Assembly: GCA_002493305.1 (NCBI GenBank)
Contig: DKYJ01000032.1
Coordinates: 16,141-80,140, forward strand
Direction: 5' to 3'
Origin: Clostridiales bacterium UBA7103
GTDB lineage: Bacteria; Bacillota; Clostridia; Oscillospirales; Oscillospiraceae
Length of the DNA stretch: 64,000 nt
Shown: piece after piece, positions 12,739 through 61,807 of the stretch
How the letters are laid out: each line of letters opens with the position of its first letter
How positions within the stretch are numbered: the first letter of the stretch is position 1
Program-made: the position numbers and the translations under genes
The notes under the pieces: generated by a model
What the model was told of the DNA's origin: nothing
The model's input: only the letters and a program-made list of their open reading frames with translations
Databases searched by the model: none

Positions 12739-12845
12739 AGTAAAATCTCCTGTAAATATAAAGTAAGGACAGAATATTCGTTATAGTTCACCGAACGAGG
12801 GCGGCTCAAATTAGAAGCTTAAGTATGGACGGTCACCACACCAAA

Positions 12846-13014
12846 CCTTGGCGCCCCCCTGAGGGGGAGCTGGCACGGCGTAGCCGTGACTGAAGGGGGG
12901 GGATGTTTTGCAGCGCGGTTGATTGGAGTATTGCTCTCCTGCTTTACCGTGGTGCAGACCGGCCCCCCTATCGGCTCGCACGGCTCGCCACTTCCCCCTC
13001 TATGGGGAAGCAAG
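12846..13014 (-). repeat. GC-rich multi-hairpin repeat, family 1, copy A (reverse orientation)
   Basis: The reverse complement aligns with 25617-25732 and 53027-53156. Shared blocks are cttcccc..ggggaag, cgataggggggc, cccccttcagtca, a stem-loop, and gctccccctcagggggRgc. Confidence 0.75.
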
Positions 13015-13066
13015 AATTAGTGCAGTGAGGTCTATCGTGCCCGAAAGCCGTTTTGCAATAAATCAT

Positions 13067-13088
13067 TGACCGGGCTTGCGCCCGGTCA
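13067..13088 (-). terminator. Hairpin downstream of the hydrolase gene
   Basis: tgaccgggc-ttgc-gcccggtca lies immediately after the stop at 13092. Only a weak T-tract follows on the minus strand. Confidence 0.45.
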
Positions 13089-13091
13089 TGC

Positions 13092-14072
13092 TCATATATT
13101 AGTCGGCGCGACGCGCTCTTCAAGTCTCAGGATATCCCGCACGGCGGTGCCCCAGGCTCTTGGTTCGTTCTTGATGGGCGAATGGGCGGAGTTTTCAAAC
13201 CATAGCCACTGTTTCCTTGGTGCCTTGAGCATATTGAACCACTCCTCGGCCAGAGGGATAGGCGTGTTCTGGTCATGCCGCCCCTCGGTGAGGTAAACCG
13301 GCATTTTAAGCTCCGGCACACTGAAGCGCAGATCATAGTCCACGACCTCGTCCCAAAGGGCGCGGAGGCTGAAAAACGCTCCCTTATAATACTTGTACAT
13401 ATCCAGCAGCGAATACTCCGGAGAACGGAGAATGGGCATGACGACGCTCGCGATTATCCCATCGCTCTCGCCGTAATCTTCGCCGCCGTACTTGGACATA
13501 AGATCCCGCTGTACCATAAGGTCGTCGAGGCTGGCATAGTGCCCCTCGTGGGGCCAGCCGATGCGCGCAAGCGCGTCGAGAGCCTTTTTGTCCTCCCGGG
13601 CCTTGGCCTCATTGAGTACAAATTCATAGGACAGGCGCTCGTTCTCCGGGCCGCTGACGAACTGCCCCATGCCGATGTAGCAGGCCACATCCTCCGGGTA
13701 TTTCTGGGCAAGGAGCGTCCCCAGCAGGGAGCCCCAAGAATGACCCACAATGTAGATCGCCCGCTTCTGGAAGCGGCGCTTGAGATAGCACAGCAGCTCG
13801 TGCGCGTCCTCCACCATCAGGCCGACGGACATATCCTCTTCCCTGAGCTTTCCTGACCAGCTCAGCCCCGCGCCGCGCTGATCCCAGCAGACCATGGTGC
13901 AGACCCGGGCAAGGGCGGACTGCTTATCCAGCACCCAATGCCTGTCGCATACGCCGGGGCCGCCGTGGATAAACAGCAGTACGGGCAGCGCCGCGTCACT
14001 GCTGAGGATCCTGACCGCCTGGGGATAACCGCCCAGCTCCAGATCAAATTTCTCGTCTATCGCGTAGCGCAT
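13092..14072 (-). CDS. Alpha/beta hydrolase (proline iminopeptidase-like)
   Basis: HGGPG oxyanion motif, GHSWGS nucleophile elbow, AAGGAG RBS. Confidence 0.8.
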   Translation of the reverse strand: MRYAIDEKFDLELGGYPQAVRILSSDAALPVLLFIHGGPGVCDRHWVLDKQSALARVCTMVCWDQRGAGLSWSGKLREEDMSVGLMVEDAHELLCYLKRRFQKRAIYIVGHSWGSLLGTLLAQKYPEDVACYIGMGQFVSGPENERLSYEFVLNEAKAREDKKALDALARIGWPHEGHYASLDDLMVQRDLMSKYGGEDYGESDGIIASVVMPILRSPEYSLLDMYKYYKGAFFSLRALWDEVVDYDLRFSVPELKMPVYLTEGRHDQNTPIPLAEEWFNMLKAPRKQWLWFENSAHSPIKNEPRAWGTAVRDILRLEERVAPTNI

Positions 14073-35686: not shown

Positions 35687-35768
35687 GCGGGTGTCCGCTT
35701 TTCCCAACGAGCAACGCTCGTCGGCCTCATAACCCTCAGGAGTTGACCGCAAATGCTCCTCCATCCGC
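35687..35768 (+). pseudogene. Decayed tRNA-fMet-like remnant
   Basis: gctcgtcggcctcataaccc (35716-35735) differs at one position from the D-stem/anticodon arm of the tRNA-fMet at 40888-40963 (gctcgtcgggctcataaccc). GCGGGTG at 35687-35693 can pair with CATCCGC at 35762-35768. There is no intact D-loop, anticodon stem or T-arm. Confidence 0.4.
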
Positions 35769-35774
35769 GCAAAA

Positions 35775-35806
35775 AATTAAAGCACCGCTTTTGCGGTGCT
35801 TTAATT
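35775..35806. terminator. Bidirectional terminator-like hairpin
   Basis: aattaaagcaccgc-tttt-gcggtgctttaatt: a 14-bp perfect stem with A-run and T-run flanks. Confidence 0.6.
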
Positions 35807-35979
35807 TTCAGTGGCTCGTAGCACCAAAAAAGATATCACGGGTTTTTCAGGAAAATCCACCTGTGACAAGGCTTTTTCGGACTTTTTAATATTCTTTTGG
35901 CCTTCGTCCTTTGTGGTCGGAGGCATTTCTTGTCTTTTCAATTGCGAACCGAAAAAGATACCTGTTCAAATCGATGTTT

Positions 35980-36030
35980 TTCCCATTTTCAAAACCGGAG
36001 TTACCGGGTTCAAAAGTGGGAACCTATTCA
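35980..36030. repeat. 51-bp direct repeat, left copy (island boundary)
   Basis: ttcccattttcaaaaccggagttaccgggttcaaaagtgggaacctattca. By manual alignment, 46 of 51 positions are identical to 40836-40886. Confidence 0.8.
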
Positions 36031-36046
36031 ATTTTGCCCCAAAATA

Positions 36047-36075
36047 TTGACTTTTGTCCCAATATGATTTAATAT
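36047..36075 (+). promoter_or_regulatory. Candidate sigma-A promoter of the ATPase-protease operon
   Basis: TTGACT (36047-36052) - 17 nt - TAATAT (36070-36075), with an alternative TATAAT at 36073-36078. This implies a very short leader before GAGGTG/GTG. Confidence 0.35.
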
Positions 36076-36094
36076 AATATTGAGGTGATAATCT

Positions 36095-37132
36095 GTGAAA
36101 AAGCAAAGCTTAATTAACCTTGTGAAATATCATGTTGAAAAGAATGATGAAGCCTTTGCTATTGAAGTAGCTGAGATAGCAAAGGAATTTGATGTAGCTG
36201 GAGATTCTGCTGCTGCACAATATCTTATGGAATTAATCTCAAATGCAAATTTCTATGTGCCCCAGTCAAATTATCGGAATCTTCGTTTTCTCAGAAAAAT
36301 TGAATACTCCTCTAAACCATTATTATTACCCACAATTATTGAGGAAGAGGTAATCGGAATTACAAAGGCAATAAACAACATGACAGGCATATCGAAATTT
36401 CTGTTTTTTGGGGCTCCTGGTAGCGGTAAAACAGAATCAGCGTGTCAAATTGGCAGATTGCTAAACAGAGATATCTTATCTGTCTCTTTTGAAAAACTTG
36501 TTGATAGCAGACTTGGTGAAACTGCAAAAAATGTTTCCACACTTTTTGACGAAATTAATCACTTAACCTATAGCAAGGTGATTGTGCTTTTCGATGAAAT
36601 TGATGCTCTCATTTTAGACAGAATTAACAGTAATGATCTGCGAGAAATGGGGCGTGTGACCTCGGTTTTTTTAAAAGAGCTAGATAGACTTAACGAAAAG
36701 GTGCCACTTATTGCAACAACCAATCTGATGGATAATTTCGACAAAGCTATTATTAGAAGATTTGATGCAATTGTTTCATTTAACCGCTATTCAAGAGAAG
36801 ATCTTATTGAAATTGCCGATTCCCTATTATCAATTAGTTTAAAACGTGCAACTAACTCTAAGCAAGATGTCAGACTTTTTAATAAGATATTGCGGAATCT
36901 GGAAGAGATTCCATTTCCCGGAGATTTGAAACAAGTGATTAAAACAGCTATTGCATTCAGTGATGAGTCTAATGAATACGATTACTTGCGTAGAATTTAC
37001 CTCGCCTTAAATGGTAACCAAGCTAGCATTGATATTCAGAAACTTAGCAATGAAGGATTTACAACAAGAGAAATTGAAATTCTTTCAAGAGTTCCTAAGA
37101 GCAGTGTTTCTAGAAAGTTGAGGGAAAACTAA
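36095..37132 (+). CDS. Classical AAA+ ATPase (IetA-like) with C-terminal HTH-like tail
   Basis: GTG start 7 nt after GAGGTG. Walker A GAPGSGKT, Walker B VIVLFDEID, sensor-1/SRH ATTNLMDNFDKAIIRRFD. The tail GFTTREIEILSRVPKSSVSRKL looks like a helix-turn-helix. AT-rich codon usage is unlike the neighbours. Confidence 0.85.
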   Translation: MKKQSLINLVKYHVEKNDEAFAIEVAEIAKEFDVAGDSAAAQYLMELISNANFYVPQSNYRNLRFLRKIEYSSKPLLLPTIIEEEVIGITKAINNMTGISKFLFFGAPGSGKTESACQIGRLLNRDILSVSFEKLVDSRLGETAKNVSTLFDEINHLTYSKVIVLFDEIDALILDRINSNDLREMGRVTSVFLKELDRLNEKVPLIATTNLMDNFDKAIIRRFDAIVSFNRYSREDLIEIADSLLSISLKRATNSKQDVRLFNKILRNLEEIPFPGDLKQVIKTAIAFSDESNEYDYLRRIYLALNGNQASIDIQKLSNEGFTTREIEILSRVPKSSVSRKLREN

Positions 37133-39385
37133 ATGAATCCTCTTTTACAAGTCAAGCTTCGTTTTTCCAATGAGGGAAACAATCAAAGACCAACTGCAAG
37201 AAATTTGAGGACACATGCAGAGACATCTGTGGAAAAAATATGCAGTCTAATTGAGTCACTTAAAGCAGTTAGACGATATTATTCAGATGTTCCTAAGATT
37301 CTCGAAAACATGCTTATCGATGTCAACTATAATGATATTATTGCCAAATCAAACAGAATTCATGACATATTGAAGCCTTCCGGAAAGTCAACGAACGACA
37401 TCGTTGTTGGGGCGCGGTTCTCCGGGGCTGATGAAGGCAAGGAAAATCATATAATAACCTACTATGTTGACTCTGCCACAGCAGAACGAACGATATCAGA
37501 ATTGGAAGTTGTAAAGGCTTTTCTTCGCGAGAAATTAGACGGAAAAGCAACTCCCCAAAACTTCAATGAGCCAGGTGCAAATATCAATTATAGTGGTTAC
37601 GAGCTCTCTAAAAACAAAATCAGGAATATTATTGTTGATTGCTCAGTAGTTGATTCTTTTTCAGTACCAGCGGTCACATCCACATCTGATCAGGAATCAT
37701 TTTTAGTTACATTTTTTAAGACTGAACTTCCTGTGACGAGTATTCTTGAAAAACTTGACATCGATAATATTCATTATCGGTATTCATTCTATGGAGATGA
37801 CACTCTTTCAATCCCGAACGATTTGTACCAGATTTTGAGTACTCAAATTCCATATCTTATTTCAATGGTTTCCACAGACTTATCTAAAATAACATTGGGA
37901 GAAATTAGTGAAAAGCAGGAACTTTCCCACATCGAGATTCCAAATCCCGAAAATGAACCAATTATTGGCGTCATAGATACGCTGTTTGATGAAAACGTAT
38001 ACTTTAGTAGGTGGGTGGAAAATGTAGATTACCTTGACGAAATTGAGCGACTCGCAGCGCGCAGTGATCCGAGAGAACACGGAACAGAAGTAACATCAAT
38101 TATTGTTGATGGCCCACGGCTTAATCCTTGGCTGGATGATCACTGCGGAAGATTTAGAGTCAAGCACTTCGGCGTGTGTACAGAAAAAATATCTATTCCC
38201 AGACTTGTTCGCAAAATCAAAGAGATTGTTATAAACAATCCTAACATACATGTTTGGAATCTGTCTCTTGGGACAGAAGATGAAGTATCAAAAAACTTTA
38301 TATCATATGATGCTGCAGTTCTTGATGAGTTGCAATCTCAGCGTAATGTTATCTTTGTAATTTCTGGAACAAACGACAACCGTTCTGAGAAAAACGGAAT
38401 TTTAAAGGTAGGATCACCCGCAGATTCTTTAAATGCAATTGTTGTTAATTCTGTAAAACGAAACGAAACACCGGCATCATATTCCCGTAAGGGTAATGTA
38501 CTATCGTTTTTCAACAAGCCCGATGTTTCCTATTATGGCGGGGATTATGATGATAGAATAATTGCCTATTCTCCCCTCAGCGGTGAAGAACCTGTATATG
38601 GAACTTCTTTTGCTGCTCCATGGATTAGTAGAAAACTGTGTTATTTAATTGATATCATGGGATTTCCCAGAGAAATAGCGAAAGCGCTTGTAATTGATTC
38701 AGCAGCAAGTTGGGACTATAAGCGCTCAACATATAAGAATAAAGAAATCGTTGGTTATGGAATCGTGCCTATAGACATTGGTGAAATCCTCTCTTCGAAT
38801 AACGATGAAATCAAATTCATGGTGCATGGAACATCCGAATCATATAAAACTACAAATTACGCAATACCCGTCCCACGAGATGAGGATGGAAAATACCCTT
38901 ATGTCGCAAGAGCTACCTTATGTTACTTTCCTATGTGTACAAGATCTCAAGGCGTTGATTATACCAACCGGGAACTGTCCCTGAAATTTGGTCGTATAAA
39001 TGCCAAGGGCGTTATTGATGATATTAACGACAACACCCAGGATGAGATTGGTGCACATGTCGATGAAAGGGCTTCCCGCAGAGAATTTAGGAAATGGGAA
39101 AATACGAAGTTTATTTCACGTGTCGTAAGGAACAACAAACCTTTAAAAGCATATGATGAAAGATTATGGGGTATTGCAATTACGTCTAAAGAAAGGCTGA
39201 CCACCCGTACAGAAAGAAACTTAAATTTTGGCGCGGTAATAACCCTCAGGGAAGTTAATGGGGTTAACCGGATTAACGATTTTGTTCGAGCCTGTAATCT
39301 TAGAGGCTGGATTGTAAATGAAATCAATGTTCAAGCTCAGCTTAACCTATACAATGCGAACCAAGAAGAGCTGAATTTTGAATGA
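37133..39385 (+). CDS. Large intracellular S8 (subtilisin-like) serine peptidase (IetS-like)
   Basis: ATG immediately follows the ATPase TAA. Catalytic residues are Asp282 (IIGVIDTL), His316 (EHGTEVTS), oxyanion Asn376 (WNLSLG) and Ser492 (YGTSFAAP). There is no signal peptide. About 270 aa N-terminal and about 230 aa C-terminal are unassigned. Confidence 0.85.
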   Translation: MNPLLQVKLRFSNEGNNQRPTARNLRTHAETSVEKICSLIESLKAVRRYYSDVPKILENMLIDVNYNDIIAKSNRIHDILKPSGKSTNDIVVGARFSGADEGKENHIITYYVDSATAERTISELEVVKAFLREKLDGKATPQNFNEPGANINYSGYELSKNKIRNIIVDCSVVDSFSVPAVTSTSDQESFLVTFFKTELPVTSILEKLDIDNIHYRYSFYGDDTLSIPNDLYQILSTQIPYLISMVSTDLSKITLGEISEKQELSHIEIPNPENEPIIGVIDTLFDENVYFSRWVENVDYLDEIERLAARSDPREHGTEVTSIIVDGPRLNPWLDDHCGRFRVKHFGVCTEKISIPRLVRKIKEIVINNPNIHVWNLSLGTEDEVSKNFISYDAAVLDELQSQRNVIFVISGTNDNRSEKNGILKVGSPADSLNAIVVNSVKRNETPASYSRKGNVLSFFNKPDVSYYGGDYDDRIIAYSPLSGEEPVYGTSFAAPWISRKLCYLIDIMGFPREIAKALVIDSAASWDYKRSTYKNKEIVGYGIVPIDIGEILSSNNDEIKFMVHGTSESYKTTNYAIPVPRDEDGKYPYVARATLCYFPMCTRSQGVDYTNRELSLKFGRINAKGVIDDINDNTQDEIGAHVDERASRREFRKWENTKFISRVVRNNKPLKAYDERLWGIAITSKERLTTRTERNLNFGAVITLREVNGVNRINDFVRACNLRGWIVNEINVQAQLNLYNANQEELNFE

Positions 39386-39388
39386 GTG

Positions 39389-39427
39389 AGTACTGCTTTT
39401 CGATTAATTTGTTCGAAAAGCAGTACT
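39389..39427 (+). terminator. Strong hairpin after the protease gene
   Basis: agtactgcttttcga-ttaatttgt-tcgaaaagcagtact: a 15-bp perfect stem starting 4 nt after the stop. The T-tract is poor. Confidence 0.6.
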
Positions 39428-39460
39428 TGCCATATATTGAGGGCTTTTCAATTTACATGA

Positions 39461-39589
39461 GCCGAGATATGCAAAATTCTCCCGGATGTAAGCCCGACTA
39501 CCGTTGAAGCTGTACTCGGCGCTATGGTAAAGAGCGGCACAATAAAACGAATTGGTTCATCGAGGGCAGCGCGATATATTAAGGCGTAG
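39461..39589 (+). pseudogene. Remnant encoding only the C-terminal winged-helix tail of a larger protein
   Basis: AEICKILPDVSPTTVEAVLGAMVKSGTIKRIGSSRAARYIKA* is preceded directly by an in-frame TGA. It resembles the C-terminal wHTH of Fic-type or ATP-binding regulator proteins (from memory). Confidence 0.4.
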
Positions 39590-39599
39590 AACAAGACGA

Positions 39600-40835
39600 G
39601 TTGTTACACGACATTATGGTGAGTATTTTCTTTCTTGCTATAATAAGTACAGCCTTATTATAGCAGAGGAGTTGAATCATCATGGGACAAAAGCATTATT
39701 CACAGATAATCAGAGACGAAGCAGTTCTGTTTTATGAGCGCGGTCACACATTTGCAGAAACACACGAAAAATACGGCATGGCTGAAAGCACATTTTTTGA
39801 ATGGAAAAAACAATTTGATCGGGCGCACCCTTTGCACGGAACTGCCATGAGCAGCGCAAGAGCGGCAAGAAAAGCCCGGCTTCATTTGGAAAAGCTGGCC
39901 TTAGAATTGGAAGTGATACGCCAGTGTCCGTATGGTGTCAACGCGTCAACGGATGATAAAATGGATGCAATCGATACCTTGCGGGGGAGATACTCTGTCC
40001 ATGTACTGTGTGAAGCGCTGAATCTTCCTCGCGGAACATATTATAACCGAAAACGGCGGGAGGGACAATTAACATCGTATGAAATAAGCGATATCGAACT
40101 TAAGCCATTGATTGAACAGATTTTCCGCGACAGTAAAAACCGCTTTGGCAGGAAACCTATACGCCAAAAGCTATCCGAAATAGGGTACCATATAAGTGAA
40201 AAAAGAATTGCCCGCATTATGAAAGAGCTGGGTTTAGAAGTCGCAAAGCCAGCCTATAAAGCGGAACACCAGAAGCCATTACCGCGATCCTACTTTAAAA
40301 ATCTGCTCTCTCGTCAGTTTGACCAGCCAGAGCCAAACCTTATTTGGGTGAGCGATATCACCTATGTAAAGGTCGGCGATCAATATTACTATATTTGCGT
40401 GATTCTGGACTTGTTTTCCAGAAGGCTGCTTTCTTATCGTATTTCAGACACCATTGATACAAGCCTGAGCCTCTCAACTTTTGATGCTGCGTTCCAACAG
40501 CGATGCAGGCCAAACAACCTAATGTTTCACAGCGATCAGGGCATACAATACACCGCATACGCTTTTCGTAAACACTTGCGTGAATTGAAGATAAAGCAAT
40601 CATTTTCAACGCCCGGTAACCCTTATGACAACTCTGTATGCGAGTCTTTTTTTCACACATTAAAAAAAGAAGCCCTCTACCACCATCTTTACAAAACGCC
40701 ACAAGAATTGGAAGAGACCTTGAAAGAATATATTGAGTTTTACAATAGCTACAGGCCCCACAGAAAGTTGAACATGAAAACTCCGATTCAGTATGAGGCG
40801 GAGTTCTTTTCTGCTGTCTGCAAATAAACGAAAAG
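39600..40835 (+). mobile_element. IS3-family insertion sequence (ends not resolved)
   Basis: Contains the transposase gene. I could not find convincing terminal inverted repeats by eye. The right end must lie between the stop (40827) and the repeat at 40836. Confidence 0.55.
39682..40827 (+). CDS. IS3-family transposase (single 381-aa ORF: HTH plus DDE domain)
   Basis: N-terminal HTH (ETHEKYGMAESTFFEWKKQF), HTH_21-like (VHVLCEALNLPRGTYYNRK), and DDE core (WVSDITYV, MFHSDQGIQYT, NPYDNSVCESFF). It is not the same element as the IS3 copy at the window start. Confidence 0.88.
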   Translation: MGQKHYSQIIRDEAVLFYERGHTFAETHEKYGMAESTFFEWKKQFDRAHPLHGTAMSSARAARKARLHLEKLALELEVIRQCPYGVNASTDDKMDAIDTLRGRYSVHVLCEALNLPRGTYYNRKRREGQLTSYEISDIELKPLIEQIFRDSKNRFGRKPIRQKLSEIGYHISEKRIARIMKELGLEVAKPAYKAEHQKPLPRSYFKNLLSRQFDQPEPNLIWVSDITYVKVGDQYYYICVILDLFSRRLLSYRISDTIDTSLSLSTFDAAFQQRCRPNNLMFHSDQGIQYTAYAFRKHLRELKIKQSFSTPGNPYDNSVCESFFHTLKKEALYHHLYKTPQELEETLKEYIEFYNSYRPHRKLNMKTPIQYEAEFFSAVCK

Positions 40836-40886
40836 CTCCCACTTTCGAATCCGGAGTTACCGGGTTCAAAAGTGGGAGCCTATTCA
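40836..40886 (-). terminator. 51-bp direct repeat, right copy; forms the terminator hairpin of tRNA-fMet on the minus strand
   Basis: On the minus strand: gctcccacttt..(ccgg-taact-ccgg)..aaagtgggagc followed by ttttcgttt, starting 2 nt after the tRNA CCA end. Confidence 0.7.
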
Positions 40887-40887
40887 G

Positions 40888-40963
<76 letters not shown>

Positions 40964-45586: not shown

Positions 45587-47181
45587 TACTTGTGCGTGAC
45601 CTGCGCCTTATGCCGGGTGAGCCGGTGGAGGCGCTGCGGCAGAGAGCCGCCAAAAAGCTGCGCGTATCCGAGGATAAAATAGGGGAGCTTCGCCTTGTAA
45701 AGCGCTCCCTCGACGCCCGGAAGAAGGACGATATTCACTATGTCTGCTCCGTGGCAGTCAGTATCAGCGGAGAGGATAAGATTTTAAAGCGGCTGAGCAG
45801 CCGGGACGCCGCGCCATATACCGAGCCGAAGCTGAATATTCCCGCGTTCACCCCGAAGCTGCCGCCCGTGGTGGTCGGCTTCGGGCCGGGCGGGATGTTC
45901 GCGGCGCTGGTGCTGGCGATGGCGGGGGCAAAGCCCATCGTCATCGAGCGCGGTCGGGACGCGCTGAGCCGCAAGGCGCTGGTGGACGCCTTCCGCGCCG
46001 GGTGCGCGCTTGATAGCGAGTGCAATGTGCAGTTCGGCGAGGGCGGCGCGGGCACATTTTCCGACGGTAAGCTCAACACCGGCGTTAAGGACGCCCGCAT
46101 GGGCTGGATGCTGCGGCAATTTGTGCTGCACGGCGCGCCGGAGAGCATAATTTACGACGCGAAGCCCCACATCGGCACGGACATACTCATTGATGTTGTG
46201 CAGAACATCAGAAAGGACATAATCGCCCGCGGCGGGCAGGTGCTTTTTGAAACCAAGCTCACCGCGCTTGAAATTCAAAACGGCGCTGTCTGCGGCGCGC
46301 GGGTGAGGGATAAGGACGGAGAGCGGGCGATCCCCTGCTCGGCACTGATCCTCGCCATCGGACACTCGGCGCGCGACACCTTTGAGGTGCTCAATACGCA
46401 GGGCGTCCCCATGGAACAAAAGCCTTTTTCCATGGGCGTGCGCATAGAACACCGGCAGACGGACATAGACTTTTCACAGTACGGCAGAGAGCGCGGGGAG
46501 CTGCCCCCGGCGGACTATTCGCTCAATGTCCATCTGCCCGACGGCAGCAGCGCCTATACCTTCTGCATGTGCCCCGGCGGGGAGGTCTTTGCCGCCGCGT
46601 CCGAGGCCGGGGGAGTTGTCACCAACGGCATGAGCTATTCAAAGCGCGACGGGGAGAACGCAAACTCCGCCCTGCTTGTGACGCTGCACACAGAGGACTT
46701 TCCCGGCGAGGGGGTTCTCGCCGGTATGTACTGGCAGCGGGAGATAGAGCGGGCGGCCTACGCCTACGGCGGCGGGAACTACCGCGCGCCCGCCCAGCTG
46801 GTAGTGGATTTCCTTGCCCATAGACCCAGCGCCGGGGCAGGCGCTGTCACACCTAGCTATAAGCCGGGCGTGGTCTGGGGCGAGCTGCGCGAGGTCTTGC
46901 CGGAGAAGATATGCTCCGTCATAGAAAAAGCTCTCCCTGAGCTGGGCAGGAAGCTGCGCGGCTTTGACGCGCCCGATGCGGTCATGACCGCGCCGGAGAC
47001 CCGCTCCTCAAGCCCCGTGCGCATCCTGCGCGGCAAGGATTTGCAGTCCGATATCGCGGGGCTGTATCCCTGCGGCGAGGGCGCGGGCTACGCCGGGGGC
47101 ATATCCTCCGCCGCGCTGGACGGTATCCGCTGCGCGCTGGCAGTGGTAAACGCCGTTGACGAAACACCGGAAAAATGTTAA
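45583..47181 (+). CDS. Uncharacterised FAD-dependent dehydrogenase (COG2509-like)
   Basis: ATGA overlap with the upstream gene. VVGFGPGGMFAAL dinucleotide motif, FSDGKLNT, CPGGEV, GYAGGI. Confidence 0.7.
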   Translation: MILVRDLRLMPGEPVEALRQRAAKKLRVSEDKIGELRLVKRSLDARKKDDIHYVCSVAVSISGEDKILKRLSSRDAAPYTEPKLNIPAFTPKLPPVVVGFGPGGMFAALVLAMAGAKPIVIERGRDALSRKALVDAFRAGCALDSECNVQFGEGGAGTFSDGKLNTGVKDARMGWMLRQFVLHGAPESIIYDAKPHIGTDILIDVVQNIRKDIIARGGQVLFETKLTALEIQNGAVCGARVRDKDGERAIPCSALILAIGHSARDTFEVLNTQGVPMEQKPFSMGVRIEHRQTDIDFSQYGRERGELPPADYSLNVHLPDGSSAYTFCMCPGGEVFAAASEAGGVVTNGMSYSKRDGENANSALLVTLHTEDFPGEGVLAGMYWQREIERAAYAYGGGNYRAPAQLVVDFLAHRPSAGAGAVTPSYKPGVVWGELREVLPEKICSVIEKALPELGRKLRGFDAPDAVMTAPETRSSSPVRILRGKDLQSDIAGLYPCGEGAGYAGGISSAALDGIRCALAVVNAVDETPEKC

Positions 47182-47227
47182 AATGAAAACAGACTAAACA
47201 ACAAAAATTTTTAATGGAGGAAACAAC

Positions 47228-47440
47228 ATGAGCTTCAGAACCATGACCGTCAAAGAGTGCTTTGACAACCCCAAGTGCGTTGCCATCATCAAGGAGTACG
47301 CGCCCAACATCATGAAGTACCCCATCAAGCTCTTCAACAAGAAAAGCTGCGGCGAGGTTTTTGACCTCGTAGTCAGCAAGAAAATCGTCCCCGAGGATGT
47401 GGCCAAAAAAGTCGAGGAAGCCATCAACGCAATACTGTAA
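47228..47440 (+). CDS. Small hypothetical protein (70 aa)
   Basis: GGAGGAAACAAC-ATG RBS, normal-looking composition, followed by a terminator. No family recognised. Confidence 0.55.
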   Translation: MSFRTMTVKECFDNPKCVAIIKEYAPNIMKYPIKLFNKKSCGEVFDLVVSKKIVPEDVAKKVEEAINAIL

Positions 47441-47453
47441 AATGAAGTAATGA

Positions 47454-47490
47454 CACAGCCGCCGAATTTTCGGCGGCTGTGCTGGTTTTT
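47454..47490 (+). terminator. Rho-independent terminator
   Basis: cacagccgccg-aatttt-cggcggctgtg then ctggttttt. Confidence 0.75.
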
Positions 47491-47608
47491 GTGCGCAAAC
47501 CCTTAATTTTGCTTAATATTGGCCATAAAACTTGACGAGGATAAACGGATATAATAGAATATGAGCGGTCAAAACAGTGCGGTCAGACCGTTGAGAGGTG
47601 ATGCGCTG

Positions 47609-48121
47609 ATGAGAAAACGAATCAGAATTTTCGCAATTTTAGCCCTTGTGATAGCGGCAACGCTGATCATCAAGAGCAATTTCCACGATCAGCGGGAGTT
47701 CGAGTGGTATACACGGCATTTTCACTATGTGAAAACAGGTGAGGATGCCATCAGAGTATACGGTACGCCGAAGGGAACTGAATATAGTTATAGCAGTGAC
47801 CTGCAGGGCAAAAGCTACATCTCATATATAACATTATATTATGACGGCTTCTCTTTTGGCATTTTAGGAAGCGATGAAACGAGACACATCTGTAAGATCG
47901 CGATAGACAAGCCCGGTTTACTGCCTCTGCGTTACAGAATTGATATAGGGTCGCCGCGTTATGCTGTCGAGCTTGCATATTTTGATGCGCCGAAATCAAC
48001 GGAAGGCGATGCATATTACTTAAAGCACAGAAACGAAATCTCATGGGAGGGCATATGGATATTCCCGGTTTATGATGAAAATGATATTTTGGTGCAATTC
48101 GAAATTACGGACGGCCTTTGA
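47609..48121 (+). CDS. Hypothetical membrane-anchored protein
   Basis: The start is at MRKRIRIFAILALVIAATLII (signal-anchor). Lower-GC gene, no family recognised. Confidence 0.5.
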   Translation: MRKRIRIFAILALVIAATLIIKSNFHDQREFEWYTRHFHYVKTGEDAIRVYGTPKGTEYSYSSDLQGKSYISYITLYYDGFSFGILGSDETRHICKIAIDKPGLLPLRYRIDIGSPRYAVELAYFDAPKSTEGDAYYLKHRNEISWEGIWIFPVYDENDILVQFEITDGL

Positions 48122-49406: not shown

Positions 49407-50077
49407 TTGGCCTCCGTTTCCGCGGCGAGAGCCGCCTCAGACAGAAAATCGTACAGCTCCATAAGCTCAAGATACGCCGCGCATACGGTCTGCGGCAGCA
49501 TTTCGGTCAGCTCCTCACCGCCGCAGTCGACCCTGTGGGTCACATACAGCGTGCGCCGGTTATACCAGTTTGCCGTGTGCCCCTCGGCCTTGCCCTTGGG
49601 CCGCTTATACTCCTGACCGCCGACAAACCAGCGCCCGCTGTCCTCAATTTTGGCCGCTATGCGCTCAAAGCGCGCGGGGTTTGCGTCGACAGCCTTGCGA
49701 AAGGCCGCCATCAGCGCGGGAGTCGGCTCTGAAAAGCCCATGCCGTACTCATACCGCGCAGCGCCAATCTCAAACCAGAAATCCGGCGCGAGCCCGGAGC
49801 GCCGCTTGCTCCATATGGAAAACCACATATGATCCTTAAACGGCCCTCTGCCGAAAAGCCGCCGCGCGTCCCGGTAGATGCGGGAGACATGGAGTTGAAA
49901 ATCCTCCCCGGGGAAGCGCGCGTTCATTATTTCAAGACAGTCCGCCCCCAACTCCTTCATGGGTCGGTGGACACACTCCTCAAACAGCGCCTTTCGAGGG
50001 AGAAACCACTCCCGCTCATTATTAAAACTGATACCCCAAAAAAATTCGGCGGTATCTTTGGTAAAGCCCTTAAACAT
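49403..50077 (-). CDS. DUF2461 (TIGR02453) family protein
   Basis: The start is at MFKGFTKDTAEFFWGISFNNEREWF (ATG 50075-50077) after AGGAGAGG, a typical N-terminal signature of the family. Confidence 0.7.
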   Translation of the reverse strand: MFKGFTKDTAEFFWGISFNNEREWFLPRKALFEECVHRPMKELGADCLEIMNARFPGEDFQLHVSRIYRDARRLFGRGPFKDHMWFSIWSKRRSGLAPDFWFEIGAARYEYGMGFSEPTPALMAAFRKAVDANPARFERIAAKIEDSGRWFVGGQEYKRPKGKAEGHTANWYNRRTLYVTHRVDCGGEELTEMLPQTVCAAYLELMELYDFLSEAALAAETEAK

Positions 50078-50226
50078 CTCAGTATCCTCTCCTGCATGGT
50101 ATGCCTGAATTTTACCACAGAGTCCGGGAGATATGCAAGAAAAGGCTTGCAAAAACAGCGTTTATACTGTAATATGTAAGGGCTAAAAATTTATTATAGA
50201 TAATATTTGTTCGGGAGGGCCCATTT

Positions 50227-50784
50227 ATGATTACAGCAGGCGATTTCAGAAACGGCGTTACCTTTGAGATGGACGGTCAGGTCATGCAGGTCGTTGAGTT
50301 CCAGCATGTCAAGCCCGGTAAGGGCGCGGCCTTTGTCCGCACCAAGATGAAAAATGTCATCACCGGTGCCGTCACCGAAACTTCCTTTAACCCCACCGCG
50401 AAGTTTGAAAACGCGACCGTTGACCGCATGACCATGGAGTACAGCTATGCCGACGGTAACCTTTATTACTTCATGAACCCCGAGACTTATGAGCTTGAGC
50501 CGGTGGACGAGTCCGTCCTGGGCGACAACTTCAAGTTCGTCAAGGAAAATATGGAGTGCACCATCTACTCCTACAAGGGCAAGGTCTTTAATGTTGAGCC
50601 GCCCTTCTTCGTGGAGCTTGAGGTCACTGAGACCGATCCGGGTTTTGCCGGCAACACCGCCACCAATGCCACCAAGCCCGCCACCCTTGAGACTGGCGCC
50701 GAGATAAAGGTTCCTCTCTTTATAGAGCGCGGCGAGAAGATCAAGGTCGATACCCGTACCGGCGAGTATCTGTCCAGAGCGTAA
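50227..50784 (+). CDS. efp: Elongation factor P
   Basis: [44 protein letters not shown], the canonical EF-P N-terminus including the KPGKG loop. Confidence 0.95.
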
Positions 50785-50844
50785 GAGCCCGATTGGCGGC
50801 CTTGCCATAGTTGTCCGATTTAAGCCAGCGAAAAGGAGGTTTTC

Positions 50845-51315
50845 ATCATAACAGTTGTTGAAAAAGCGGCATACCTGAAGGGTCTTGTCGAGGGGCTGGG
50901 CGTTGAGCCCGATTCCAGAGACGGGAAGCTCTGGGGCGCATTGACGGATCTCTTGTCCGATATGGCTCACGAGGTGGAGGATCTTCAGGCCAGCGACCTT
51001 GACTTTGCCGAGGCTCTGGACGAGATCAGCGAGGATCTTACCTATCTGGAGGAGCTGACCTGCGATCTGGATATGCCGGAGGATGAGGACGAAGAATGTT
51101 TTGGCGATTGTGCCTCATGCCTTGATCCCTGTGACCAAGCAGATGAGGACGATGAGGAGCTGGAGTATGATGGCGTTTTGTATGACGCGACCTGCCCCGG
51201 CTGCGGCGAGGAGATAACCTTTGATCAGGACACGCTGGACGAGGGCTCCATCAAGTGCCCCAACTGCGGGGAGCTGCTTGAGTTCGACCTCAGCGACGCT
51301 GACGGCGAGGAATAA
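50845..51315 (+). CDS. Acidic protein with C-terminal zinc ribbon (CD1247-N-domain-like); start codon uncertain or non-canonical
   Basis: The frame is open from 50824. AAAGGAGG lies at 50832-50839, but the first canonical start is TTG at 50941. The upstream in-frame sequence ITVVEKAAYLKGLVEGLGV looks like genuine protein. C-terminal CPGCGEE...CPNCGE. Confidence 0.6.
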   Translation: MITVVEKAAYLKGLVEGLGVEPDSRDGKLWGALTDLLSDMAHEVEDLQASDLDFAEALDEISEDLTYLEELTCDLDMPEDEDEECFGDCASCLDPCDQADEDDEELEYDGVLYDATCPGCGEEITFDQDTLDEGSIKCPNCGELLEFDLSDADGEE

Positions 51316-54953: not shown

Positions 54954-55529
54954 TCACCCCTCCAAATCGGGCTTGGCGAGCTTTATATACACCTTGCCGG
55001 AGACGGAGCTGAGGTTGAAGTTTTCAAGATAAATAATATATGTGTCGCTGTAATTGCCGTAAGGATAGGTGGTAGTCCTGTCACCCTTGGGCCAGAAGGT
55101 CAGGGAATCCTCAATGGGCACCGTCTCGGAGCTTGTGACCTCGCCAGTGTATTCAAGGGTATTAAAATCCACGGTGAAATTACCGGTTTTTACAACTCCT
55201 GTGGCGGTAAAATCAATTTTCAGCGTGTCCTTATGCTTAGAGTCATTGGCGGCGGTGTAGCCCTGCCGCAGGGCAAAGCCGTAGGACATCTGTACGGAGC
55301 TTATCTCCCCGGCGTTGTCCCCATCGGTGAGCTTGGAGTCGGCGCGAAAAGCCTTGAACTCGAAATAATCCAGCAGGTTTTCCGGCGTTATATCCACCTC
55401 ATATATCCTGTCGTAATCCACAGTGGCGCTCTCTTCCGGCTCGGCGGGGGTGGACTCATCGTCCTTGCCGCAGGCGCACAGGCACAAAAGCATCGCCGTG
55501 CAGAGAACAAAAGACATTATTTTTTTCAT
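54954..55529 (-). CDS. Hypothetical lipoprotein
   Basis: The start is at MKKIMSFVLCTAMLLCLCACGKDD (lipobox). No family recognised. Confidence 0.65.
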   Translation of the reverse strand: MKKIMSFVLCTAMLLCLCACGKDDESTPAEPEESATVDYDRIYEVDITPENLLDYFEFKAFRADSKLTDGDNAGEISSVQMSYGFALRQGYTAANDSKHKDTLKIDFTATGVVKTGNFTVDFNTLEYTGEVTSSETVPIEDSLTFWPKGDRTTTYPYGNYSDTYIIYLENFNLSSVSGKVYIKLAKPDLEG

Positions 55530-55763
55530 AAAAACACCCCCTGAGAGGGAAAATAAAAAAATCAAAAAATTCTTTTTTATATTATAGCACATACAGCGCC
55601 TTTTACGCAATCCACGGCTTTGATCACAGACAAAAATTAACAAGTCCCGCGCGGCGGCGCTTGTCGGCTTTGAGAGAAATATCCTACTTTAATTGCTGGT
55701 CGTCGGCGCATAATTATCATGCGGCATTTTTGTGAGATGATAATGCGCAGGAGGGAGATTACT

Positions 55764-56756
55764 ATGAAAAAAGCGCTTGTTTCAACGCTTTTGTGCTTTT
55801 CCCTTGCGGCGGCGCTGACCACGGGAGCTTTCGCCCAGGAGCTCACGGTTGGGGGACAGGTCGTCGGTATACAGATAAGCACGCAGGGCGTTATTGTGGC
55901 GGGAGTTTCACCGGTGGAGACGGCGGAAGGCAGCTGTTCTCCGGCGGAAGAGGCGGGGCTTTGCGAGGGCGATATTATAATAGAAGCCCAGGGCAAAACC
56001 GTTATGACCGCCACGGAGCTGATAGACATTGTCAATCAGGGTCAAGGCGCGCCGGTAGAGCTGACGGTGCAGCGCCAGAGCAAGACACTGAAGCTCTCTG
56101 TCACGCCGGTGAAGGCCGAGGAGGAGCAGTGGCGGCTCGGTATGTGGCTGCGTGACAGCGTTTCCGGTATTGGCACGCTGACCTTCTGCGACCCGGAGAC
56201 CGGAATCTACGGCGCGCTGGGGCACAGTATCAGCAGCGACACAAGCAACAACAAGGAGCTGCCCATAAGCCAGGGCAAGATAACCGATGCGGAAATAATA
56301 AGCATCGAAAAGGGCACGGCGGGCAGCCCGGGCGAGCTCAATGGCTGCGCCGATGTAGGCAGGGTGCTGGGGAGTGTCGAATCAAACGACGGCCACGGCA
56401 TCTACGGCAGACTGTACACCTCACTTGCCGGGCGGCGGCTTGAGACCGGCGAGATGTGCACAGGCCCCGCCAGCATACTCTGCACTGTAGCCGGGCGGCA
56501 GACCGCCGAATACAGTGTGCAGATATCCAGAGTGTATAACGATGCTGACGGCCGCCACGCCATGATATGTGTCACCGACCCGGAGCTCTGCGCCCTGACC
56601 GGCGGTATTGTGCAGGGAATGAGCGGCAGCCCCATTTTGCAAAACGGGAAGCTGGTGGGCGCCGTGACCCATGTTTTCATTAACGATCCTCAGAAGGGCT
56701 ACGGCATATGTATTCAGGATATGCTCAGCAGCGCGGGGCTTAGTGAAGCGGCATGA
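55764..56756 (+). CDS. spoIVB: SpoIVB sporulation signalling peptidase (S55) with PDZ domain
   Basis: The start is at MKKALVSTLL after GGAGGGAG. PDZ segment (GDIIIEAQGKTV), GIGTLTFCDPETGIYGALGH, and GMSGSPILQNGKLVGAVTHVF. Confidence 0.88.
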   Translation: MKKALVSTLLCFSLAAALTTGAFAQELTVGGQVVGIQISTQGVIVAGVSPVETAEGSCSPAEEAGLCEGDIIIEAQGKTVMTATELIDIVNQGQGAPVELTVQRQSKTLKLSVTPVKAEEEQWRLGMWLRDSVSGIGTLTFCDPETGIYGALGHSISSDTSNNKELPISQGKITDAEIISIEKGTAGSPGELNGCADVGRVLGSVESNDGHGIYGRLYTSLAGRRLETGEMCTGPASILCTVAGRQTAEYSVQISRVYNDADGRHAMICVTDPELCALTGGIVQGMSGSPILQNGKLVGAVTHVFINDPQKGYGICIQDMLSSAGLSEAA

Positions 56757-59394: not shown

Positions 59395-60240
59395 ATGAAT
59401 ATACTATATAATACAGAGAAGCTGGTGCAGCTCATAACGAGCCTCCAGAGCTTTACCGGTATACGCACTAACACCTTTGACGCAAACGGCAGGGATATTC
59501 AGCTCAGCGGCGGGCACAGCGAATTTTGCCGGCTTATCAATGCCTCTGCCGAGGGTCACGCCCGCTGCGAGGGCTGCGATATGAAAGCCTCGGAAGAGAG
59601 CTTCTCCTGCCGGGGGCCGTACAGCTATCGCTGCCACGCCGGTGTTTGCGAGACGGTGATCCCTGTGTTTGACAGCGGGGAGCCGGTAGCTTCTCTGGTG
59701 TTCGGCCAGCTTTTGGACGATACCCCCATAAAGCTCCAGTGGGAAAAAACTGTAAAGACCCTTGACTGGTACAAGGGCGATATGGAGGAGCTGAAGAAGG
59801 CATATTTTACCATGCGCCAGATGTCCCGCCGGGACATGGAGGCCTATACCGAGATACTGGAGGCCGTTGCCAGCTACATAGGCCGGGAGGGCATAATCGT
59901 TGCCACCGAACGCACCGATATCCAGCGGCTTGAGGAGTATCTTGACAGGCATTATACCGAGAAGCTGACCCTGAAGAAAATTTCTGCCGATCTCTGCATA
60001 GGCACTACCAAGCTCTGTGCCATCGCCAAGAAGATGTCCGGCGGCAGCACGCTTATGCACATCATCGCCCGAAGGCGGGTGGAGGAGGCAAAGCGGCTGC
60101 TGATAAAAAGCGACGAATCCATCTCCGCCGTGGCCGAAAAAGTGGGTTTTACGGACTATAATTATTTTACGAAAATATTCAAAAATATCACAGGGGTTCC
60201 ACCTAGGAGATATCGCATGGAAGCACGGCTGGGGCGCTGA
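59395..60240 (+). CDS. PocR-sensor / AraC-family transcriptional regulator
   Basis: Cys-rich PocR region (FCRLI...CEGCD...YRCHAGV) plus a C-terminal AraC HTH pair (VGFTDYNYFTKIFKNITGVPPRRYR). Confidence 0.8.
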   Translation: MNILYNTEKLVQLITSLQSFTGIRTNTFDANGRDIQLSGGHSEFCRLINASAEGHARCEGCDMKASEESFSCRGPYSYRCHAGVCETVIPVFDSGEPVASLVFGQLLDDTPIKLQWEKTVKTLDWYKGDMEELKKAYFTMRQMSRRDMEAYTEILEAVASYIGREGIIVATERTDIQRLEEYLDRHYTEKLTLKKISADLCIGTTKLCAIAKKMSGGSTLMHIIARRRVEEAKRLLIKSDESISAVAEKVGFTDYNYFTKIFKNITGVPPRRYRMEARLGR

Positions 60241-60493
60241 ACCGGCCAGCAAAAACTTGTTGATGTTGCACAAAACCGCTCTTTATATTTTGTGTAAAGA
60301 GCGGTTTTTTTGTGAGCCTTGGAAGATTTTACTAAAAACCGAATGAAATTACCTATATTATACAAACAGTAACAAGTATAATTCGTACGTATATGGTGCT
60401 TTTGTATAAATTTGTACATATATACGAAAGCGCCGATTCTTTAAGGAAGGGCAGATATGCCCTTCGAAAATTTAAGAACAAGGAGAAACGAAA

Positions 60494-61807
60494 ATGAAAA
60501 AGATTCTTGCACTGCTCCTGGCGCTGGTCATGGTTTTCGCGCTCTGCGCCTGCGGCCAGAAGGCCCCTGCCGAGAGCCAGGCCCCCGCTGAGGGCGAAGG
60601 CGAAGCCCCTGCCGGTGATGCCGTCGTTCTTGATGTCATCATCTCTCAGTACGGCAACAAGACCCAGGATTGGTGGACTCAGTTCGAGAAGGACTTTGAG
60701 GAAGCCAATCAGGGCATCGACCTGAACATCGAGATTGTTTCCTGGAACGATATTTATCAGGTCGTCAACACCCGCATTTCCACTAACTCCCAGCCCGACA
60801 TCCTCAACATCAGCGGCTTTGCCGATTATGTTGCCGATGATCTGCTCATGCCTGCCGAGGACTATGTCTCCGACACTGTCAAGGCAAACCTGATCCCCTC
60901 CTTCTGGGAGTCCAACGCCATTGACGGCACTGTCTGGGCGCTTCCCATTCTGGCTTCCTGCCGCGCCATGTTCTGCAATATGGATATCCTCAATGCTGCC
61001 GGTATTGAGAATCCTCCCGCCAACTGGGACGAGGTCATGGCAGCCTGCGAAGCAGTCAAGGCTTACGATGCCAGCATCGTTCCCTGGGGTCTGGATATCT
61101 CCACCGATGAAGGCCAGGCCGCTTTCTCTTACTACACCTTCAATAACGGCGGCGGCTTTGTCGATGCAAACGGCGACTGGGCAATCAACTCCCCCGAGAA
61201 CGTTGCGGCTGTTGAGTTCATTGCCGAGCTTTACAACAGCGGTTACTGCAATGCAAACCCCGCCACCGACACCCGTTATCCTCTCCAGGATTCCTTCAAT
61301 GCCGGTTCTCTGGCAATGATGATAGGCCCCTTCAACATGATCAAGGCTGACAGCACCGTCAACTATGCTGTTGCCGATCTGCCCACTCAGACCGGAACTG
61401 CTACTTCCCTTGGCGTTTGCGACCAGCTCATGGTATTCAAGGATGAAGAGGCTGCCGACCAGGATGCTCGTACCGCCGCAATAACCGCTTTCTTCGATGC
61501 TTTCTATGAGCTGGAGACTTATGCCGGTTACATGGTTTACGAAGGCTTCCTGCCCGCCACTCTGGACGCTTCCGAGCTGCTGGCCAAGTCTGCTGAGGAC
61601 TTCACCGACTGCAACGGCGCTGCCGGCCGCAGCGAGTTCTTTGCCACCTTCTGCGCCCAGCTCCCCAACTGCCAGTTCTACCCCATGCAGAAGGCTGAGT
61701 GGATGGATGTCCGCAACGGCGTTATTGATGTTGAGCAGCAGGTCAGCGAGGGTCTGAGTAGCGCTCAGGACGCTCTTGATGCTCTTCAGGCGAAGGTCGC
61801 CGGTTGA
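60494..61807 (+). CDS. Sugar ABC transporter substrate-binding lipoprotein (family 1)
   Basis: Lipobox LCACGQ, typical SBP_bac_1 composition, AAGGAGA RBS. Confidence 0.85.
   Translation: MKKILALLLALVMVFALCACGQKAPAESQAPAEGEGEAPAGDAVVLDVIISQYGNKTQDWWTQFEKDFEEANQGIDLNIEIVSWNDIYQVVNTRISTNSQPDILNISGFADYVADDLLMPAEDYVSDTVKANLIPSFWESNAIDGTVWALPILASCRAMFCNMDILNAAGIENPPANWDEVMAACEAVKAYDASIVPWGLDISTDEGQAAFSYYTFNNGGGFVDANGDWAINSPENVAAVEFIAELYNSGYCNANPATDTRYPLQDSFNAGSLAMMIGPFNMIKADSTVNYAVADLPTQTGTATSLGVCDQLMVFKDEEAADQDARTAAITAFFDAFYELETYAGYMVYEGFLPATLDASELLAKSAEDFTDCNGAAGRSEFFATFCAQLPNCQFYPMQKAEWMDVRNGVIDVEQQVSEGLSSAQDALDALQAKVAG

Follow-up and report, generated by a model that had tools for sequence, protein, structure and literature searches.

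A probable IetAS-type ATPase-protease module on a putative decayed islet beside a tRNA-Met gene in Clostridiales bacterium UBA7103

Does an ATPase gene that is followed directly by the gene of a large subtilase belong to the IetAS family, known from both plasmid stabilisation and phage defence, or does it form a lineage of its own, and what are the additional regions that both of its proteins carry? The question is raised by a gene pair, here called ietA and ietS, in Clostridiales bacterium UBA7103. It lies in a window of 64,000 nucleotides (nt), by which the whole analysed stretch of DNA is meant (assembly GCA_002493305.1, contig DKYJ01000032.1, positions 16,141-80,140 of the forward strand). 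An earlier note on this DNA had described the pair and compared it with IetAS. The reading preferred here, to which a probability of about 80% is given, is that the two genes make up an IetAS-type module from a Firmicute/Mollicute clade and are carried on a decayed, horizontally acquired islet of about 4.8 kb on the 3' side of a tRNA-Met gene.

The two genes form a compact unit. The stop codon TAA of ietA (37130-37132) abuts the ATG of ietS (TAAATG), with GAGGGA 7 nt 5' of that ATG, and ietA has its own ribosome-binding site (GAGGTGA, 36082-36088) upstream of its GTG; judged from this arrangement, the genes are translationally coupled. The guanine-cytosine (GC) content is 0.35 in ietA, 0.386 in ietS and 0.39 over the islet, against 0.57 and 0.56 in the flanks. 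Open reading frames (ORFs) of 345 and 750 codons at 35-39% GC, taken with the E values of their matches, are far beyond chance. Both are full length against hundreds of homologues, with all catalytic and nucleotide-binding residues intact. IetA contains the Pfam AAA domain PF00004 (residues 103-230, E 9e-25), with Walker A at 36410-36433 (K112 in GSGKT), Walker B at 36593-36598 (D167/E168 in LFDEID), and intact sensor-1 N210 and R221/R222 in RRFD; its closest relatives in the PDB are Rix7, Afg2 and the D2 domain of Cdc48/p97, at about 1e-19. IetS contains Pfam Peptidase_S8 PF00082 (residues 275-543, E 6.3e-30), and its catalytic residues D282 (37976), H316 (38078), N376 and S492 (38606) are invariant in 131 aligned homologues. 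Export was judged by hydropathy only, as the maximum Kyte-Doolittle mean over 19 residues. This value is 1.12 for IetA, in which no signal peptide or membrane segment is apparent, and 1.26 for IetS, which has a polar N-terminus and no sign of a signal peptide or membrane anchor. The description given in the earlier note is borne out by these data: an AT-rich pair in GC-rich surroundings, a GTG-initiated AAA ATPase of 345 residues with K112, D167/E168 and R221/R222 in place, a protease of 750 residues that starts directly after the ATPase stop codon (as read from the ORF list and the sequence), a complete S8 catalytic set, and nothing that points to secretion.

Membership of the IetAS family is indicated by profile searches and alignments. 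Four PADLOC models of IetA match the ATPase (best PDLC02196, 2.9e-34) and eight models of IetS match the protease (best PDLC02197, 4.9e-61, residues 255-738 on profile positions 237-748 of 749); the ATPase of a close homologue, at the locus designated L036, matches positions 5-369 of the 374 in the IetA profile. In NCBIfam the best matches are 'anti-phage ATPase IteA' (95.7 bits) and 'S8 family anti-phage peptidase IteS' (147.4 bits), IteAS being the other spelling of the name. By BLASTP, the protease is 25% identical to the iteS product of Acidovorax plasmid p1-T1 over residues 269-739 (E 3e-26, collinear to the C-terminus), nothing being found in the first 260 residues, and the ATPase is 35% identical to Acidovorax IteA in the AAA core. 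When an alignment of 131 IetS homologues of the clade was compared by hhalign with one of 50 canonical IteS sequences, including an E. coli cluster of 1,093 sequences, the match had a probability of 100% (E 5.6e-50, 634 columns), with residues 22-730 on 36-749 and K72-S73-x-R75 of the clade placed on the canonical invariant K-S-H-R-P. The reach of this alignment identifies the N-terminal 270 and C-terminal 200 residues as domains of the IetS family rather than additions to it. The regions that the earlier note had delimited on either side of the catalytic core therefore exist, while its label of unassigned falls. A search with IetS among 1.84 billion representatives of 50% identity clusters returned 1,291 clusters at E <= 1e-3, of which 237 reach E <= 1e-30. 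Most of the best 150 are full-length proteins with about 710-800 amino acids (aa), collinear and 33-59% identical, and about 20 are shorter fragments. On these comparisons the pair counts as a true IetAS system, detectable by PADLOC and belonging to a Firmicute/Mollicute clade, and the membership that the earlier note had left open can be affirmed from the PADLOC and NCBIfam matches and the hhalign result.

A tested relative provides a view of what such a pair may do. An S8 peptidase of Mycoplasma mycoides subsp. capri (P0208/P0398, 757 aa) is 38% identical to IetS over IetS residues 1-750 (E 1e-160); from its organism, length and annotation rather than from a locus tag, we infer that it is the toxin T133. 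This protein cuts E. coli counts by 3-5 logs and leaves elongated, blebbing and lysing cells (PMC8562856), and its partner A132, a 353-aa AAA-ATPase, neutralises it fully (PMC8562856, PLoS Genet 2021). The TA132/3 pair is flanked by direct repeats or insertion sequence (IS) elements (PMC8562856). Given 38% full-length identity to T133, the window pair falls in a clade of which one member has demonstrated toxin-antitoxin behaviour. The two pairs are alike in gene order, in protein sizes (353/757 against 345/750 aa) and in their setting of low-GC DNA, direct repeats and an IS element. They differ in host, a Mollicute as opposed to a high-GC, Clostridia-like genome, and TA132/3 has been shown as a toxin-antitoxin pair only.

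The canonical systems of E. coli, Pseudomonas and Acidovorax share with the window pair an upstream ATPase, a downstream S8 protease of about 750 aa, the helix-turn-helix (HTH)-like tail of the ATPase, and mobile elements and other defence genes in the vicinity. They are unlike it in that their ietA and ietS share about 30 nt, against a stop codon that abuts the start codon here, in that pairwise identity of the proteases is about 25%, and in the absence, in Acidovorax, of the promoter repeats described below. The Agrobacterium tumefaciens pTiC58 system (Yamamoto et al. 2009) follows the same logic of a protease toxin and an AAA antitoxin, according to PMC13069673 and PMC8562856; the sequence comparison was made with the homologue on another Agrobacterium plasmid rather than with the pTiC58 proteins, and is a distant one, aligning the S8 domain and part of the C-terminal domain at 26% identity (E 6e-20). 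The ietHAS system (NAR 2026, PMC13069673) shares IetA and IetS and has an SNF2 helicase in addition, as opposed to the two genes found here; no helicase gene was found in or beside the window islet. In the B. cereus m1293 system, of which the first 500 nt or so were compared, the N-terminus of IetA and the promoter are unlike those of the window clade.

Published work on these relatives describes two roles. The role first found for IetAS was that of a toxin-antitoxin pair that stabilises plasmids, with the protease as toxin and the ATPase as antitoxin (Yamamoto et al. 2009, as cited in PMC13069673). Other members protect against phages (Gao 2020, as cited in PMC13069673 and bioRxiv 10.1101/2022.08.27.505566). 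Phage defence needs protease activity, and cloning of an ietA mutant was not possible (PMC13069673). The B. cereus ietAS, placed in B. subtilis, acts by abortive infection and becomes toxic once the SPbeta gene yosG is expressed (bioRxiv 10.1101/2022.08.27.505566), and on its own the E. coli ietAS protects to a limited extent, with synergy when it is combined with Zorya II.

Conservation of the pair was examined by a scan of one genome per species, which yielded 65 loci. Sixty were informative in having a full-length protease and upstream sequence; of the other five, four run off their contig ends and one holds a truncated copy. In 60/60 informative loci ietS is preceded, at a distance of 3-21 nt, by the end of an ietA homologue (53-78% identical). 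Members of Lachnospiraceae, Oscillospiraceae, Synergistaceae, Acidaminococcaceae and Gastranaerophilales carry close homologues (68-74% identical), a spread that points to horizontal transfer. Homologous pairs were found on an integrative and conjugative or mobilisable element (ICE/IME) with a tyrosine integrase, relaxase, ArdA and topoisomerase, on a small island of Extibacter muris with primase/VapE and a large serine recombinase, and on 56-kb plasmids of C. perfringens, where they adjoin ParA/ParB; on the Acidovorax plasmid p1-T1, iteA/iteS adjoin Shedu. Among the 102 nearest ORFs at the 60 loci, the families met most often are, by Pfam, N6_Mtase (8), Eco57I (6), HsdM_N (5) and BrxC domains (3) and, by PADLOC, PglX (4). 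In an Eisenbergiella metagenome-assembled genome (L036, 1-13510) the order is BrxA-BrxB-BrxC-IetA-IetS-PglX, so that the pair is embedded in a type I bacteriophage exclusion (BREX) operon, and two further loci (L038 and L060) probably share this arrangement, as their flanking large ORFs are of the same size. The two genes thus keep together at every informative locus, and their settings are those of mobile elements and defence (ICE/IME, plasmids, restriction-modification, BREX) rather than of housekeeping, which upholds the earlier note on both counts.

Three homologous loci show peculiarities of their own. Past pglX in L036, a 546-aa ORF (11870-13510) gives a weak PADLOC match to prokaryotic Argonaute (pAgo, 6.3e-15) instead of one to PglZ. 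At L074 (6961-7996, ERZ13688375) a single-base insertion at position 201 splits ietA and leaves ietS intact; a toxin without its antitoxin was considered and set aside, an assembly error being likelier in this hybrid ('opera') assembly. At L059 (6001-7443) a truncated and decayed ietS (residues 271-750) has no ietA in the 6 kb upstream.

The islet itself is a low-GC stretch (about 36031-40836) between two direct repeats of 50 nt that are identical at 46/50 positions and have no third copy within the window (Table 1). The hairpin of the right repeat lies 1 nt from the 3' end of the tRNA-Met gene, and the left repeat is a degraded form of it. Between the repeats stand, in order, the promoter, ietA, ietS, a 15-bp inverted repeat, a gene remnant and an IS3 transposase; no integrase was found there. 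The inverted repeat starts 4 nt past the ietS stop codon and lacks a T-run; it is likely the terminator of the operon, a position that the terminator scan did not call. The remnant has neither a start codon nor an N-terminal part at the site and is interpreted as a leftover from the decay of the original element. Its end (…EICKILPDVSPTTVEAVLGAMVKSGTIKRIGSSRAARYIKA*) has the look of a C-terminal winged helix, either from a regulator or from an ATP-binding protein. The transposase is one fused ORF of 381 aa, whereas an orfA/orfB pair joined by a frameshift is usual. The same arrangement was found again, base for base, in several metagenome assemblies; most metagenome contigs that carry the islet end about 116 nt past the transposase stop codon, inside tRNA-Met. 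A search of metagenome contigs for the junction pattern of an island-free site gave no match, in a collection in which the species is scarce, and megablast of the islet against plasmids likewise gave none. Taken together, the layout suggests that the islet is a decayed integrative element beside a tRNA gene.

Table 1. Features of the ietAS islet, in positions of the window
Feature	Position	Strand	Basis
Left 50-nt direct repeat, att-like scar, degenerate hairpin	35981-36030	.	Repeat search; GC falls from here
ietAS promoter with paired direct-repeat operator candidate	36035-36078	+	Alignment of 56 upstream regions, promoter scan
ietA, classical-clade AAA+ ATPase (predicted antitoxin), 345 aa, GTG start	36095-37132	+	Pfam, PADLOC, NCBIfam, PDB relatives
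C-terminal HTH-like tail of IetA, aa 318-343, GFTTREIEILSRVPKSSVSRKL	37046-37123	+	Tail alignment, Pfam scans
ietS, S8 subtilase, 750 aa, ATG start	37133-39385	+	ORF list, Pfam
N-terminal part of IetS, aa 1-252, with two ferredoxin-like alpha/beta units	37133-37888	+	AlphaFold2 models, hhalign
IetS subtilase (S8) catalytic domain, aa 275-545	37955-38767	+	Pfam, invariant residues, Foldseek
IetS C-terminal beta-rich domain, aa 555-750	38795-39385	+	DSSP of model, hhalign, PADLOC profile
Perfect 15-bp inverted repeat, arms 39389-39403 and 39413-39427	39389-39427	+	Repeat search, 100% complementary
3' gene remnant, 43 codons, winged-HTH-like C-terminus ...GTIKRIGSSRAARYIKA*	39461-39591	+	Translation
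IS3-family transposase, 381 aa	39682-40827	+	NCBIfam transpos_IS3 4.3e-99 over 14-372; Pfam rve, HTH_21, HTH_23
Right 50-nt direct repeat, hairpin with 20-nt arms, 90% complementary	40837-40886	.	Repeat search
tRNA-Met (CAT), 3' side adjoins islet	40888-40963	-	ARAGORN; Rfam tRNA 57.5 bits

The C-terminal tail of IetA had been called unexplained in the earlier note. The last 45 residues are as well conserved as the ATPase core, and in 23 aligned tails G, T, R, I and the motif S-S-V-x-R are invariant. Equivalent tails end the Acidovorax and Agrobacterium ATPases (…YGVSQRQIRNAI and …TGVSRDTIRKYQ), and the PADLOC profile of IetA runs on through this part of the protein. By this conservation, which extends to Acidovorax IteA and the Agrobacterium homologue, the tail is a feature of the family as a whole. 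When the 23 tails were scanned one by one with Pfam, they gave weak matches in which 13 of 20 families were helix-turn-helix DNA-binding families, among them MarR_2, in 6/23 tails (best 3.4e-4), and the resolvase domain HTH_7 (0.003).

A possible binding site lies in front of the operon. Among the 130 nt 5' of ietA at 56 distinct loci, the only alignable block is TGTCCCAAAAT-(1-4)-TTGACA-TT-TGTCCCA-(about 10)-TATAAT. In the window it begins 5 nt past the end of the left direct repeat and comprises TGCCCCA (36035-36041, one mismatch to TGTCCCA), the -35 box TTGACT (36047-36052), TGTCCCA (36055-36061) and the -10 box TAATAT/TATAAT (36070-36078); the promoter scan of the window returned TTGACT-17-TAATAT. 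The operon is therefore read, from these boxes, as having its own sigma-70-type promoter. Counting two copies of TGTCCCA with at most one mismatch each and a start-to-start spacing of 20 or 21 nt, the pair is present in 45/56 upstream regions, 35 of them exact in both repeats, as against an average of 0.025 regions in shuffles, the counts being inflated by the common ancestry of the promoters. In several of the 11 exceptions the promoter may fall outside the 130-nt slice because leaders are longer there. TGTCCCA-20-TGTCCCT stands at the same place on a C. perfringens plasmid, where the protease shares only 43% identity. The half-sites lie two helical turns apart and flank the -35 box, and this sandwiching gives the element the appearance of an autoregulatory operator. 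No TGTCCCA pair was found upstream of the Acidovorax operon, whose IteA differs in its recognition helix. The place of the direct repeats is taken there by an inverted repeat, TGATTCA…TGAATCA, 5' of iteA (p1-T1, L085 1925-1955), which may be a different operator that fits the different helix. The conserved TGTCCCA-pair element is new in this analysis.

A link of this operator to the start of the IS3 transposase gene was also considered. Positions 36051-36072 match 39672-39693 in inverted orientation (22 nt, 86%), and the match holds a third, inverted copy, TGGGACA, over the transposase ATG. It was judged to be probably due to chance, because TGTCCCAA occurs twice in the window against 1.85 expected and because a second inverted match (36086-36102 with 39696-39712, 17 nt, 88%) is not collinear with the first.

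The architecture of IetS was modelled with AlphaFold2 from the alignment of 131 sequences, at a mean predicted local distance difference test score (pLDDT) of 92.8 and a predicted template modelling score (pTM) of 0.93. The model places two alpha/beta units at about residues 31-134 and 160-252, a linker of lower confidence at about 253-272, a subtilisin core at 275-545, a beta-rich part at about 555-710 and a small terminal alpha/beta element. The C-terminal domain is mostly beta-strand by DSSP on this model, and its alignment with canonical IteS stays collinear as far as the final residues. Conserved positions outside the core include the invariant K72-S73-x-R75 in the N-terminal region and E645, K654 and W655 in the C-terminal domain. 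A Foldseek search of the PDB with the whole model returned multi-domain and pro-form subtilases at the top, with E values down to 1.3e-20: ProN-Tk-SP 3afg (1.3e-20, over all 505 target residues), KP-43, pro-EpiP, kexin/furin and PCSK9, with mature subtilisins ranking below the pro-forms. This ranking fits a protein whose subtilisin core is preceded by an alpha/beta unit and followed by a beta-sandwich. The fold is like that of Tk-SP, KP-43 and kexin/furin, but these enzymes are secreted with cleavable propeptides and share 10-18% identity with IetS, which has no signal. A sequence search of the PDB with IetS found nothing.

The N-terminal region deserves separate consideration. Modelled alone, it reaches a pLDDT of 90.2, and a Foldseek search of the PDB with it gave a best E value of 0.011, its top matches being tandem ACT/ferredoxin-like regulatory domains of generic likeness; its sequence profile found only insignificant matches in the PDB, and Pfam scans of 25 such regions showed no recurring family and no Inhibitor_I9. 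Residues 1-20 score 91-96 in the whole model and 63-73 in that of the isolated region, which suggests that in the predicted structure they pack against the rest of the protein. The region is best described as an IetS-specific tandem alpha/beta module. The earlier note had suggested a possible I9-like propeptide, an idea weakly supported by the pro-form subtilases among the top fold matches; the assignment was not adopted, given the lack of an Inhibitor_I9 match and of any significant fold match for the region alone. That the module acts in a prodomain-like, inhibitory manner is put forward as a hypothesis.

How the module might work can be outlined from the tested homologues. By analogy with these, the IetS protease would poison the cell and IetA would neutralise it, so that the pair would act as an addiction module to the benefit of its carrier element. 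A phage-encoded trigger would free the protease, and the infected cell would stop growing or die before phage release. Beyond the homologues, the IetA tail might bind the two TGTCCCA repeats and thus autoregulate the operon in the manner of type II antitoxins, and IetA might keep IetS in an inactive state, binding or remodelling it in an ATP-dependent manner, possibly by way of its conserved N-terminal region; were IetA lost or titrated away, the protease would then go free. The specific proposal that IetA is a DNA-binding antitoxin acting on the paired operator, while the IetS N-terminal region is an uncleaved, prodomain-like lock held or remodelled by IetA, is a tentative one and considered rather doubtful. 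If true, it would offer a first concrete starting point, in regulation and in structure, for understanding how IetAS is silenced and how it fires.

Several observations weigh against the preferred reading or against parts of it. Both NCBIfam scores fall far below the equivalog cut-offs, with 95.7 bits against 510 (NF042959, IteA) and 147.4 against 900 (NF042956, IteS), which implies that the pair is not orthologous to the E. coli type; the models cover a narrow proteobacterial group. Toxicity, neutralisation and phage protection at this locus are extrapolated from homologues of 25-40% identity and would hold here only by analogy. The pair has no defence island around it in the window, its neighbours being transporter and regulator genes on one side and trkH on the other. 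As read from the sequence, pore-loop 1 of IetA is SRLGET and lacks the usual aromatic residue, which makes an unfoldase mode uncertain, threading being possible and not implied. The tail is probably a DNA-binding helix-turn-helix, an assignment that comes from weak matches; the tail of the window's own IetA matched no Pfam family, and the tail profile found nothing significant in the PDB. Binding of the tail to the TGTCCCA repeats, a candidate operator, is something that we purely infer. A recent paper (PMC13069673, 2026) also calls both the mechanism by which IetAS counters phages and the restraint of IetS by IetA unknown.

The other explanations differ in how much of this evidence they account for. 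A purely selfish addiction module, which stabilises mobile DNA and gives its host no phage protection, would agree with the first description of IetAS in plasmid stability (as cited in PMC13069673 and PMC8562856), with TA132/3, the closest tested relative, having been shown as toxin-antitoxin only (PMC8562856), with homologues that adjoin ParAB on a plasmid or ride on ICE/IME, and with the solitary position of the window pair on a small islet that also holds an IS element. It is nevertheless considered unlikely in this exclusive form: phage protection is reported for other members of the family (Gao 2020 and the B. cereus system), clade homologues sit within BREX operons and beside restriction-modification genes, a setting typical of defence and unneeded for stabilisation, and addiction and defence are not mutually exclusive roles. 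The signs of decay on the islet, namely the lost integrase, the gene remnant and IS3 transposase, the degraded hairpin of the left repeat and the mismatched first operator repeat (TGCCCCA), raise instead the prospect of an inactive relic whose pair is no longer expressed or functional. Yet both ORFs are full length with all catalytic and nucleotide-binding residues kept, the promoter, ribosome-binding sites and coupling are intact, and identical copies occur in several metagenomes; moreover, a toxin gene could not safely outlast the decay of its antitoxin, and neither gene has decayed. A relic is thus very improbable.

Least probable by far is a secretion-associated or housekeeping protease-chaperone pair, such as a mycosin/EccA-like part of a type VII secretion system or a machine for regulated proteolysis. 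Weak NCBIfam matches to the type VII mycosin (1.4e-8) and EccA (6e-5), a homologue named 'type VII secretion-associated serine protease mycosin', and an AAA core like that of Cdc48 and proteasomal ATPases speak for such a role, but the matches span only the generic S8 and AAA cores, with the mycosin at 34 bits against a cut-off of 279. By hydropathy there is no signal peptide or membrane anchor, no type VII secretion genes were found in the neighbourhood, and the foreign composition, the patchy and mobile distribution and the toxicity of expressed homologues all tell against this explanation, leaving the IetAS-type module as the reading to be kept.

Some further observations concern the surroundings of the islet. 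About 250 nt to its left, 25 nt on the forward strand (35716-35740, GCTCGTCGGCCTCATAACCCTCAGG) are 88% complementary to the anticodon arm of tRNA-Met (40918-40942), in effect a tRNA-Met fragment in the opposite orientation, which neither ARAGORN nor Rfam called as a tRNA and which an earlier rearrangement at the site may have left behind. The 590-nt gap between an hxlR-like gene and the islet holds, at 35773-35808, a perfect inverted repeat of 16 bp (AAAATTAAAGCACCGC/GCGGTGCTTTAATTTT) with T-rich sequence after it, probably a bidirectional terminator. Elsewhere in the window, 1-kb bins with a GC content of 0.48-0.51 against a background of about 0.57 (1-1000, 47001-48000, 50001-51000, 55001-56000, 60001-61000 and 62001-63000) are possibly acquired or intergenic segments.

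The locus adds nothing categorically new, and its extra parts are normal for the IetAS family; the new elements of this analysis are a candidate operator and a model of the protease structure in which confidence is high. The TGTCCCA repeats around the -35 box offer a testable candidate cis-element, and the model (pLDDT 92.8) could guide mutagenesis. More than 7,500 database proteins of a gut Firmicute/Mollicute clade belong to the same family over their full length, and gut Clostridial pairs of this kind are best named IetAS-like rather than 'S8 peptidase / mycosin'. Assigning the clade to this family also connects the 'kill-switch' toxin of Mycoplasma TA132/3 with IetAS as a defence system.

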